Below, piece by piece: positions 61,307-61,536 of a DNA stretch of 64,000 bases. Each line of letters starts with the position of its first letter. The stretch's first letter is position 1. Source of the DNA: Pyrinomonadaceae bacterium (GTDB taxonomy: Bacteria > Acidobacteriota > Blastocatellia > Pyrinomonadales > Pyrinomonadaceae); assembly GCA_036794905.1 (NCBI GenBank), contig DAIRFV010000003.1, positions 3,866 to 67,865 of the forward strand, written 5' to 3'. The notes below the pieces were generated by a model that was not told where the DNA came from, searched no databases, and saw only the letters and a list, made by a program, of their open reading frames with translations. The position numbers and the translations under genes were made by a program.

Positions 61307-61536
61307 GACAGTAGGCAGATGGCAGTAGGCGGTAGGCAGTTAAAGACGATTTCGAGGGGCCCCCGAGGGGCGGGATGTTGATAGCCACGGCGTCCCAATC
61401 GAACGCGAGCCCCGTCGGGGGCGACGTAAACATGCCGCCCCTCCGGAGCTTGTCATGATTATCAATCTCGGTGGCCATGAACATGCCGCCCCTGACGGGG
61501 CTCACTGCCTACTGCCTACTGCCTACTGCCTACCGC
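61307..61536. repeat. Large heptad-periodic inverted-repeat element (GGCAGTA / TACTGCC arms) enclosing a ~160-bp interior
   Basis: Left arm GACAGTAGGCAGATGGCAGTAGGCGGTAGGCAGT (61307-61340). Right arm ACTGCCTACTGCCTACTGCCTACTGCCTACCGC (61504-61536) is four perfect ACTGCCT heptads. Confidence 0.85.

Follow-up and report, generated by a model that had tools for sequence, protein, structure and literature searches.

Intergenic hairpins with tandem heptanucleotide arms in a Pyrinomonadaceae genome and their likely kinship with 23S_rRNA_IVP-carrying elements

Five intergenic hairpins whose arms consist of tandem 7-nt units lie in a 64,000-nt stretch of DNA from a Pyrinomonadaceae bacterium (contig DAIRFV010000003.1; hereafter the window, of 70% GC, to which coordinates refer unless another locus is named), and they raise the question of what kind of element such hairpins represent: signals in the transcript, arrays of protein-binding sites, or mobile repeats. 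The answer that we lean towards, with a little better than even confidence, is that they are members without an open reading frame (ORF) of a widespread foldback class of the intervening sequence (IVS) type, longer members of which carry a gene of the 23S_rRNA_IVP family (IVP below) between their arms. The host was placed through the DUF4388 protein encoded in the window, relatives of which were found only in metagenome-assembled genomes (MAGs) of Acidobacteriota/Pyrinomonadaceae, at up to 93% identity, with no record of the identical product; the window sequence is present in terrestrial and soil metagenomes.

Tandem Repeats Finder (TRF) arrays, inverted-repeat scans and shuffles all agree that the five hairpins and their heptad arms are real (Table 1). 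Counted at 2.7 copies or more, TRF reports 10 period-7 arrays in the window, compared with 1.7±1.4 (maximum 6) in 100 dinucleotide-preserving shuffles of it, and nine of the ten fall within the hairpins. An array was found at every arm position named in a preliminary description of the window, bar the left arm of the 7683 site, and the unit sequences given there, with the CAGTAG/GGCAG core common to three of the sites, were correct. Arms measure 18–31 nt and are mutual reverse complements at 89–100%; all five sites qualify as paired inverted heptad arrays, defined as two convergent arrays of at least three tandem 7-nt units on opposite strands, a few hundred bp apart at most. The RNA folds of four sites (all but 61307-61536) range from -48 to -59 kcal/mol, with z from -4.3 to -10 against dinucleotide shuffles. 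The intergenic placement also holds, since all five lie between ORFs with high third-position GC. Rfam at gathering thresholds gave no family and no rRNA anywhere in the window; none of the five sites is an rRNA helix tip, where IVSs insert, and all are between protein-coding genes.

The hairpins belong to a larger and changeable population. Related or metagenomic loci are given L numbers here, and the window and 41 related loci form a Pyrinomonadaceae set of 620 kb, in which the commonest TRF period is 7 (97 arrays, against 70 of period 6 and 54 of period 9). Of the 207 inverted repeats whose arms reach 16 nt or more, 20 have lag-7 arms, every other period accounting for nine or fewer. The set contains 23 inverted heptad pairs with at least 10 different units, and GGCAGTA, CAGTAGA, GGAGTCA, GATGAGT, GATGAAC, AGGGATG, CGTGAAC, ATTTGAA and TGCGGAA are among the units seen in it. 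Some arms are composites of two units, as in L133, where (GATGAAT)n stands outside (CAGTAGA)n. Interiors of 12–340 nt are very diverse, and some have a GC-rich hairpin of their own plus A and T runs. Relatives have hairpins of this kind at the corresponding intergenic sites, though their heptads or interiors are different, or else the site is empty. At the sites flanking the DUF4388 gene, promoter and coding flanks are conserved and the element itself is not (Table 1), and the same interior family is found at different sites in both orientations: the 58-nt interior at 60164-60221 has three further copies in L001, lying in both orientations, and is also found in L064, and L114 has, by eye, only a short core motif in common with it. 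A strain in run X6 with flanks about 97% identical has other sequence at 60125-60245.

Copy number points the same way. Arm words reach depths of 3486 (60130-60241), 734 (the arm at 61504-61536) and 366 in the source metagenomes, where gene words stand at about 15 (about 17 beside 60130-60241), and arms exceed genes by some 200-fold in three metagenomes; metagenome contigs stop at the arms, and dozens with unlike flanks join there. The depth excess, the contig ends, the many unlike flanks and the variant strain together mark the arms as a dispersed repeat of high copy number that turns over fast. The elements lie flush between genes, in many scattered copies, and are replaced, resized or absent at orthologous sites of close relatives, which bears out the REP- or MITE-like behaviour that had been one of the options proposed for them (repetitive extragenic palindromic sequences; miniature inverted-repeat transposable elements). 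In soil metatranscriptome contigs, arm depth is 53–171 against 0–7 for neighbouring genes, figures that speak for presence in RNA libraries only, as these contigs come from many loci and may reflect DNA carry-over.

Two further regularities concern orientation and position. A scan of metagenome contigs for CAGTAGNCAGTAGNCAGTAG yielded 120 loci of 31–72% GC. A downstream (NCTACTG)n partner lies within 400 nt of 63 of the 116 (CAGTAGN)n arrays that have 300 nt or more of downstream room; an upstream partner was seen for none of the 119 with upstream room. GC skew of the 5' arm is positive in 79 periodic hairpins and negative in 7, compared with 87 and 58 for non-periodic inverted repeats. Because the arms are inverted, the G-rich unit comes first on either strand. 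Mapping to gene ends placed 51 periodic hairpins between genes and 2 within them, mostly with gaps of 0–30 nt to both ORFs; 34 of the 51 are between tandem, 11 between convergent and 6 between divergent genes. Inverted repeats without periodicity fall mostly inside genes. Stem mismatches are divided 46 to 46 between G·U and A·C types overall, and 16 to 21 (sense versus antisense) in tandem-gene contexts.

Heptad arms around 23S_rRNA_IVP genes

Only two CAGTAG pairs have arms about 440 nt apart (L115 and L157), and each encloses one ORF. Both encode proteins of PF05635 23S_rRNA_IVP/TIGR02436, "four helix bundle protein" (E 2e-40 and 1.5e-33), with weak matches to Avd, a protein of diversity-generating retroelements (DGRs); they are only 36% identical to each other, and the closest solved structure is X. 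campestris XCC0516. A search for autonomous copies with arms 0.4–5 kb apart returned only these two IVP-bearing ones, longer R…F spacings being genes bracketed by two elements. Full-length IVP-bearing members measure about 440–480 nt.

In total, 21 IVP or IVP-like loci were compared: L115 and L157, found via their arms; L132; seven metagenomic loci; and eleven plasmid genes, the metagenomic and plasmid genes having been sampled by protein homology alone. The family is very large, with no fewer than 7,951 cluster representatives at E<=1e-10; a homologue is present on only 25 of 72,556 plasmids, nearly all cyanobacterial and mostly heterocystous, plus Gemmatirosa; the eleven plasmid genes are ten from these homology matches and a second gene in a 50-kb stretch of pNPUN01. 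L132 is an IVP-like pseudogene between (AAATGAC)n…(ATTTGNN)n arms. All seven metagenomic loci (from Acidobacteriota, Blastocatellia, Chloroflexia, Kryptonia and others) have heptad inverted arms, with units (GGCAGTN)n, (CAGTAGG)n, (GTGGTCA)8…(TGACCAC)3 and (GGGCAGT)n. Among the plasmid genes, period-7 inverted arms surround those of N. punctiforme (two genes), Calothrix, Anabaena 90, Picosynechococcus, Geminocystis, Stanieria and Trichormus, the unit of the last, TCAGRAK, being that of Geobacter; Gemmatirosa has period-8 inverted arms, Pseudanabaena direct heptad arrays on both sides, and Nostoc 7120 a 3' arm only, beside the end of an insertion sequence (IS). Tandem-repeat arrays thus flank the IVP gene at 20 of the 21 loci, as inverted pairs at 19 (18 of period 7 and one of period 8), across some six phyla or candidate lineages. 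Judged by eye, the 5' arm is G-rich in 17 of the 20 arrayed loci and C-rich in none. In the 50 kb of pNPUN01, 6 of 7 TRF period-7 arrays are arms of its two IVP genes. The preliminary description had advised looking for a REP-associated tyrosine transposase (RAYT) elsewhere in the genome; the gene to seek is probably instead the 23S_rRNA_IVP four-helix-bundle gene, given its place inside such arms at 19 of 21 loci.

IVP elements are single-gene inserts in tight intergenic gaps, such as those between a response regulator and a kinase, cas10/cmr2 and cmr3, or cas6 and cas4. The cas examples are on Anabaena 90 (L183, next to cas4), Picosynechococcus (L185, cas10/cmr2-cmr3) and Pseudanabaena (L188, cas6-cas4) plasmids, and insertions of this kind may explain why 23S_rRNA_IVP figures in lists of cas-associated genes. 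At one locus recovered from several samples (L173-L180), the IVP gene (L173 1201-1563) is inside a BREX-type (bacteriophage exclusion) Eco57I-like methyltransferase gene, at a point past the GSGHFL motif; the 3' arm is followed by a GGGAGG box and a TTG start, and the methyltransferase gene may be expressed as two pieces.

The window hairpins can be linked to this gene-carrying class because architecture, polarity, the GGCAGTA/CAGTAGG unit and a junction motif match, and because of the neighbour hairpin of L162. Two IVP loci from Acidobacteriota and Blastocatellia MAGs (L162, L163) have the very GGCAGTA/CAGTAGG unit of the window; the sequence after the 5' arm reads GGCAGT-TAAAGAC in the window and GGCAGT-TAAAAGC in L162 and L168; and in L162 an ORF-less hairpin of the GGCAGTA/CAGTAGG unit stands directly beside the IVP gene. 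It is likely that the window elements are the ORF-less form of IVP-carrying, IVS-like elements, an identity that, as far as could be found, is new to the literature.

Elements in their gene setting

The element at 61307-61536 is located between two divergent genes, for a DUF4388 protein and a TPR/Poly_export protein, and a promoter-like box for each abuts an arm from outside. Both boxes are kept in L001-L006 and L017, and the sequence between them is not. To judge from these boxes, this copy is probably upstream of both transcription starts, and since it lies between two back-to-back promoters it may not be transcribed at all. Its interior contains the inverted pairs 61359-61379/61429-61449 and 61407-61434/61476-61503, and the same interior family is found between GGCAGTA arms at another intergenic site (L002 11070-11237). 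The motif GCCCCnnnnGGGGCGRCATGTT is a small palindromic repeat in its own right, with three or four copies, and makes up the interior between GGCAGTA arms at both of these intergenic sites. The DUF4388 gene itself likely starts at a GTG near 61222 (…AGGAACCTGCGAGTGGAAAAC) rather than at the TTG at 61279.

The hairpin at 60130-60241 spans the gap from the stop of the DUF4388 gene (60245) to the ATG of the next gene (60124), which lacks a Shine-Dalgarno sequence; orthologue conservation begins exactly at this ATG, and the arrangement is kept in eight relatives. The gene, at 58727-60124 on the minus strand, encodes a 465-aa protein without a Pfam match, its ATG coming right after the 3' arm. On the other side of the TPR/Poly_export gene, the stop codon TAG (63682-63684) falls within the first heptad of the hairpin at 63681-63798. 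Two in-frame 30-nt tandem repeats in coding sequence were noted in the same neighbourhood, at 62411-62493 (2.8 copies, TPR/Poly_export gene) and at 60535-60602 (2.3 copies, DUF4388 gene).

The remaining two elements are farther off. The one at 35725-35803 is between Wza-like (35807-36826) and Wzc-like (33247-35700) genes of one operon, as identified by Pfam, and that at 7683-7746 between the stop of a GDP-mannose dehydratase gene (7747) and the PqqD-like gene (7335-7619) of a lasso-peptide-like cluster. Besides the PqqD/RRE gene (7335-7619), this cluster (3-7619, minus strand) encodes an Asn-synthase-like cyclase (5022-6878) and a transglutaminase-like protease (6875-7342), along with a 2OG-Fe(II) oxygenase, an ABC transporter and a methyltransferase. 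A 59-aa ORF at 4846-5025 is a candidate precursor, with a leader fitting YxxPxLx3Gx5TxG (…YHRPELHVYGSIATLTA|GSVNPETGMDNPGNQKTG), and the gap downstream of it contains a hairpin of 18 perfectly paired bp around a 5-nt loop, which lacks heptad periodicity (4754-4794).

Other periodic hairpins were encountered among the relatives. Arms of tandem 8-mers (CACAGAGA, ACACGGAG, CACGAAGA) or of units of about 10 nt (AACCACGAA) share the purine-rich-first polarity of the heptads, and those of CACAGAGA and ACACGGAG occur among the strongest hairpins; read on the other strand, ACACGGAG gives the Geobacter "class 2" unit TCTCCGTS. Heptad arms in L005 and L017 enclose, or are replaced by, a REP-like repeat, GAGTTTAGCCCGGCCTTTCAAGGCCGGG…GCCGCGTCGCGTCAGCGACGC. 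An AT-rich, near-self-complementary array, (ATTTGAA/ATTTCAA)n, is present in seven related genomes of 62–73% GC; within two groups of loci its coordinates are similar, coordinates alone having been compared.

Table 1. Coordinates of the heptad-armed hairpins, their parts and related features in the window and in related loci (L numbers).
Locus	Positions	Strand	Feature	Method or value
Window	61307-61340		5' G-rich arm GACAGTA GGCAGAT GGCAGTA GGCGGTA GGCAGT	TRF period 7, 4.6 copies
Window	61341-61503		163-nt interior, nested copies of palindromic repeat GCCCCnnnnGGGGCGRCATGTT; begins TAAAGAC	
Window	61504-61536		3' C-rich arm (ACTGCCT)x4.3	TRF 100% match
Window	61309-61340, 61504-61533		period-7 arrays	TRF
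Window	61311-61340/61504-61533		inverted arms, 30 nt, 90%	repeat search
Window	61539-61567	+	promoter-like TGGACA-17-TATAAT for TPR/Poly_export gene; abuts 3' arm, outside element	11/12 matches
Window	~61280-61285	-	conserved TATAAA box for divergent DUF4388 gene; abuts 5' arm, outside element	
Window	60130-60241		arms (CAGTAGA/CAGTAGT)x4.9 at 60130-60163 and (CTACTGN)x2.9 at 60222-60241; 58-nt interior	RNA fold -48 kcal/mol, z -4.5
Window	60131-60164, 60222-60241		period-7 arrays	TRF
Window	60137-60156/60222-60241		inverted arms, 20 nt, 95%	repeat search
Window	63681-63798	+	arms (GGCAGTN) at 63681-63701 and (CTGCCNN) at 63761-63793; T6 at 63793-63798, AGGAG, ATG at 63812	RNA fold -57 kcal/mol, z -4.3
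Window	63683-63701, 63761-63791		period-7 arrays	TRF
Window	63681-63698/63776-63793		inverted arms, 18 nt, 89%	repeat search
Window	35725-35803		31-nt arms of (CGTGAAC/CGTCAAC) heptads, 17-nt loop	RNA fold -58.8 kcal/mol, z -10
Window	35726-35751, 35777-35802		period-7 arrays	TRF
Window	35725-35755/35773-35803		inverted arms, 31 nt	inverted-repeat scan
Window	7683-7746		arms (GAAGGAT/GAAGGGG…), 6-nt loop, two extra unpaired heptads on one side	RNA fold -49 kcal/mol, z -7
Window	7719-7745		period-7 array	TRF
Window	7683-7703/7710-7730		inverted arms, 21 nt	inverted-repeat scan
Window	DUF4388-flanking site		GGCAGTA arms, 163-nt interior	
L001	DUF4388-flanking site		GGAGTCA arms, 59-nt interior	protein 93% identical
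L002	DUF4388-flanking sites		window's upstream type (GGCAGTA arms and GCCCC-hairpin interior) at downstream site instead	
L003	DUF4388-flanking site		CAGTAGA arms; decayed site also present	
L004	DUF4388-flanking site		period-8 hairpin nested in GGCAGTA arms	
L006	DUF4388-flanking site		empty between promoter boxes	
L004	15296-15380, 3571-3648, 9773-9858		8-mer or ~10-nt armed hairpins	
L005	20143-20208, 16141-16222		8-mer or ~10-nt armed hairpins	
L040	20128-20190		8-mer or ~10-nt armed hairpin	
L033	18743-18817		8-mer or ~10-nt armed hairpin	
L005	9732-9908, 11082-11243		REP-like repeat in heptad arms or in their place	
L017	11072-11225		REP-like repeat in heptad arms or in their place	
L003	1646		(ATTTGAA/ATTTCAA)n	
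L004	2036		(ATTTGAA/ATTTCAA)n	
L006	2274		(ATTTGAA/ATTTCAA)n	
L021	12711		(ATTTGAA/ATTTCAA)n	
L022	12746		(ATTTGAA/ATTTCAA)n	
L023	12721		(ATTTGAA/ATTTCAA)n	
L038	2072		(ATTTGAA/ATTTCAA)n	

Origin, possible effects and rival explanations

If the window hairpins are ORF-less IVS-type elements, they would descend from IVP-carrying ones or propagate like them, in the manner of a MITE and its parent element. Arm length would shift by 7-nt slippage, which would explain the variation in unit number. New copies are hypothesised to land in the loops of resident hairpins, as is suggested by nested hairpins (61341-61503, L004, L133, L024) together with the preference of IVSs for helix tips; this would explain sites that stay occupied while their sequence changes. 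Once transcribed, perfect stems of 20–33 bp would, by analogy with IVSs, be RNase III substrates, and the transcript would be cut between cistrons, which may be why insertions are tolerated in operons, even in rRNA. Because the unit length is not divisible by three, a stop within the unit (TAG in CAGTAG, TGA in CTACTGA/GATGAAC) recurs in all three frames within 21 nt, and for most units, though not for all, translation from either side would end at the edge of the element.

Termination of transcription, another role previously put forward, has a basis at one of the five copies: a T-run follows the stem at 63681-63798, and copies of this kind may also terminate transcription, whereas the other four have no T-run. 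A terminator consensus scan of 59900-64000 found no terminator at any arm, and loops of 6–163 nt depart from the form of an intrinsic terminator (a short GC-rich stem, a loop of 3–8 nt and a U-tract). Three further ideas were dropped or reduced. The idea of a short reading frame within the 58-nt interiors (giving peptides like MLMMTTARFVMRKFFY with its stop, in L001, L064 and L114) was abandoned, as the window version is different and several other members have no ORF with its end in the arm; a promoter in the same interior (TTGACG-17-CGTAAT) is not conserved and is missing from the window copy; and stops in all frames as the cause of the 7-nt period fit CAGTAG, CTACTGA, GATGAAC and CGTGAAC and fail for GTGGTCA, CACAGAGA and TGCGGAA, and were kept as a contributing idea only.

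Several observations weigh against the assignment to an IVS-type class. Comparison of the empty site in L006 with filled sites revealed neither a target-site duplication nor a clean insertion junction. IVP is not a known transposase, and the longer relatives encode only IVP, where a MITE would have a transposase-coding parent. A hidden Markov model (HMM) search of the window and all ORF-less interiors detected no IVP gene or remnant, so that the link of the window to IVP comes down to architecture, polarity, unit sequence and a short junction motif. That sites stay occupied across species at about 80% protein identity could mean that the host maintains the hairpins. On the side of function, the RNA contigs may include DNA carry-over and stem from many loci; an RNA-level role is doubtful for the 61307-61536 copy, apparently upstream of both divergent promoters; the stop-codon argument does not extend to every unit, since (GTGGTCA)n, (CACAGAGA)n and (TGCGGAA)n contain no stop codons; and the lack of a G·U over A·C bias gives no sign, in the sequences compared, of selection on the fold of one transcript. 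The absent mismatch bias and the copy between promoters suggest that a selfish or DNA-level origin of the complementarity (copying) fits better than transcript selection.

Persistent occupancy is also the starting point of a rival account, which we consider rather unlikely: the hairpins would be structures made by the host, growing in place by slippage and arm-to-arm template switching and kept for termination, as blocks to 3' exonucleases or as RNase III sites, with IVP genes as secondary lodgers homing into their loops. Many relatives are occupied at the same intergenic sites, the hairpins fill stop-to-start gaps, one copy has a T-run, many interiors contain a terminator-like GC hairpin of their own plus A and T runs, and composite, gradually changing arms (L053, L133, L024) resemble growth in place; heptanucleotides are, moreover, the commonest long simple repeats according to Mrazek as cited in PMC4679880. 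Growth in place does not, however, predict identical units at hundreds of loci and across phyla, such as TCAGGAG/CTCCTGA in Geobacter, Trichormus and L001, nor an absolute polarity of 63 to 0; the wobble bias expected under RNA-level selection is missing, the 61307-61536 copy is outside both transcription units, and four of the five window copies have no T-run.

Two further accounts look to proteins that recognise the units. The arms might be DNA-level arrays in which each heptad binds a multimerising protein (the nucleoid-associated IHF/HU, an omega-type ribbon-helix-helix protein, or IVP itself), a possibility that we regard as improbable. The sites of the omega repressor of pSM19035 are 7-bp heptads arrayed directly or as inverted copies, and in the hairpins both the 7-bp spacing and the orientation of units are fixed, the two strands are symmetrical with no RNA-strand bias, and the 61307-61536 copy adjoins promoters. 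For the Geobacter arrays, binding of IHF/HU was proposed by the authors who described them (PMC2700814). At least 10 unrelated units in one lineage are hard to reconcile with one sequence-specific binder, most copies are between operon cistrons or after stop codons rather than at promoters, and no candidate binder is encoded nearby in the window. Least probable of all, to the point that we give it hardly any weight, is that the hairpins are REP sequences, bacterial interspersed mosaic elements (BIMEs) or REP doublets forming hairpins (REPINs), moved by a RAYT (TnpA-REP) transposase recognising the GTAG of CAGTAG units. GT[AG]G is the conserved 5' foot of REPs, GTAG does occur in CAGTAG/GGCAGTAGG units, and the hairpins are intergenic, high-copy pairs. 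Yet the arms are tandem 7-mers, not the single imperfect palindromes of 20–40 nt that define REPs; the units CGTGAAC and GAAGGAT (two of the five in the window), GGGTGTG and GTGGTCA lack GTAG; the gene inside full-length copies is IVP, not a Y1 transposase; and the 27 window ORFs scanned include no RAYT.

Beyond the placement of the window hairpins in an IVS-type class, it is tempting to speculate on a wider unity, although we would sooner doubt than affirm it: short tandemly repeated repetitive (STRR) sequences, the Xanthomonas GGGAATC and Geobacter MTYCTGA heptads and the arrays described here may all be arms of one ancient foldback class, in which IVP, a relative of Avd, would be the only gene and the propagation or maintenance factor, rRNA IVSs a special case at helix tips, and ORF-less hairpins MITE-like progeny landing in resident loops. 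Heptamer repeats have been catalogued since 1990 (as STRR) and predominate among the long simple repeats of many prokaryotes, but no explanation of them has won acceptance, and 23S_rRNA_IVP/TIGR02436 has no known function outside DGRs. If IVP and heptamers belong together, rRNA IVSs and a very large protein family would come into one picture with the heptamer repeats, and both puzzles would become experimentally tractable in Nostoc 7120, N. punctiforme and X. campestris. The elements also matter for annotators and MAG builders, who should recognise them: their arms break short-read assemblies, and they can split genes (the BREX methyltransferase gene of L173) and operons (cas10-cmr3, or a response-regulator/histidine-kinase pair).

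Comparison with known systems

The arms are STRR-like, as first described, in being tandem 7-nt units that are dispersed, repetitive and mostly intergenic, and around the IVP genes of the cyanobacterial plasmids examined it is heptads of this sort that form the arms. STRRs are defined, in contrast, as direct arrays of particular units (STRR1-3) in heterocystous cyanobacteria, a definition that excludes inverted pairing and a gene in the loop; the units here are others, and the host belongs to Acidobacteriota/Pyrinomonadaceae. With REP/BIME/REPIN sequences and MITEs, the elements have in common that they are small, high-copy, intergenic hairpins that nest and show presence/absence turnover between relatives. 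They differ in that their arms are tandem repeats of variable number, no transposase partner was found, and no target-site duplication was seen. An analogy, and no more than that, is offered by the foldback (FB) transposons of Drosophila, which have inverted arms of short tandem repeats in variable copy number and a loop that is empty or holds unrelated DNA; these are eukaryotic, with units of 10–31 bp, arms of kilobases and no homology to the present elements.

The IVSs of rRNA in Coxiella burnetii, Leptospira and Brucella are closer. That of Coxiella 23S rRNA measures 428–444 nt, with a 28-bp stem of terminal inverted repeats cut mid-stem by RNase III and an S23p ORF in the loop; IVSs stand in place of the tetraloops of helices 9, 25 and 45 and are described as having no established origin or mobility, and the S23p ORF was proposed as a mobility component by Ralph and McClelland, as cited there (PMC4990558). 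Common to IVSs and the IVP elements are a stem of some 28 bp, a loop with a single four-helix-bundle gene of about 120 codons, and a total of about 430–480 nt, the layout being that of L115, L157 and L162-L191; the window arms of 18–31 nt agree with IVS-type terminal inverted repeats of about 20–30 bp. ORF-less short versions also exist among rRNA IVSs, which are regarded as selfish (PMC4990558). The elements described here are, however, between or within protein-coding genes instead of in rRNA helices 9, 25 or 45, the window copies are ORF-less, and tandem-heptad arms are not described in PMC4990558.

Direct repeats of TAACTGA just before start codons were reported by MacGregor in 2015, with the remark that a stop-bearing heptad gives stops in all three frames (PMC4679880). 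These repeats, found in marine Beggiatoaceae, cyanobacteria and Bacteroidetes, resemble the present arms in unit (CTACTGA versus TAACTGA), in intergenic position, in three-frame stops and in ending a few nt before start codons without a Shine-Dalgarno sequence, but they are nearly all direct arrays, with one inverted case in that genome. Among the papers retrieved, none found under the IVP family names dealt with repeats and none paired "S23 ribosomal protein" with heptamer terms, and searches on the repeat strings themselves matched only shRNAs and primers.

Paired inverted heptad arrays had been thought unfamiliar in high-GC genomes when the window was first described, but they have already been published for Xanthomonas and Geobacter metallireducens. 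In Xanthomonas (65% GC), Rehm et al. (2015) found GGGAATC heptamers that are 89–93% intergenic, with 70–75 convergent pairs per genome, and read them as G-quadruplex motifs (PMC4692102). In G. metallireducens, Aklujkar et al. (2009) described eight pairs of five tandem MTYCTGA heptads on opposite strands (class 3 sites), suggested to bind a global regulator, along with octamer and nonamer classes that include TCTCCGTS (PMC2700814). As in the present elements, each array has 3–14 tandem heptads, the arrays are convergent with a G-rich or TCAGGAG 5' arm, their spacing is variable, and they are about 90% intergenic, near gene ends, in tens to hundreds per genome; the Geobacter unit is that of L001 and of the Trichormus IVP element. 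The phylum and most units differ, and no connection with IVP was drawn in those studies. Paired inverted heptad arrays are therefore a feature already described in other phyla, without an accepted explanation, and their association with IVP genes is the new point.

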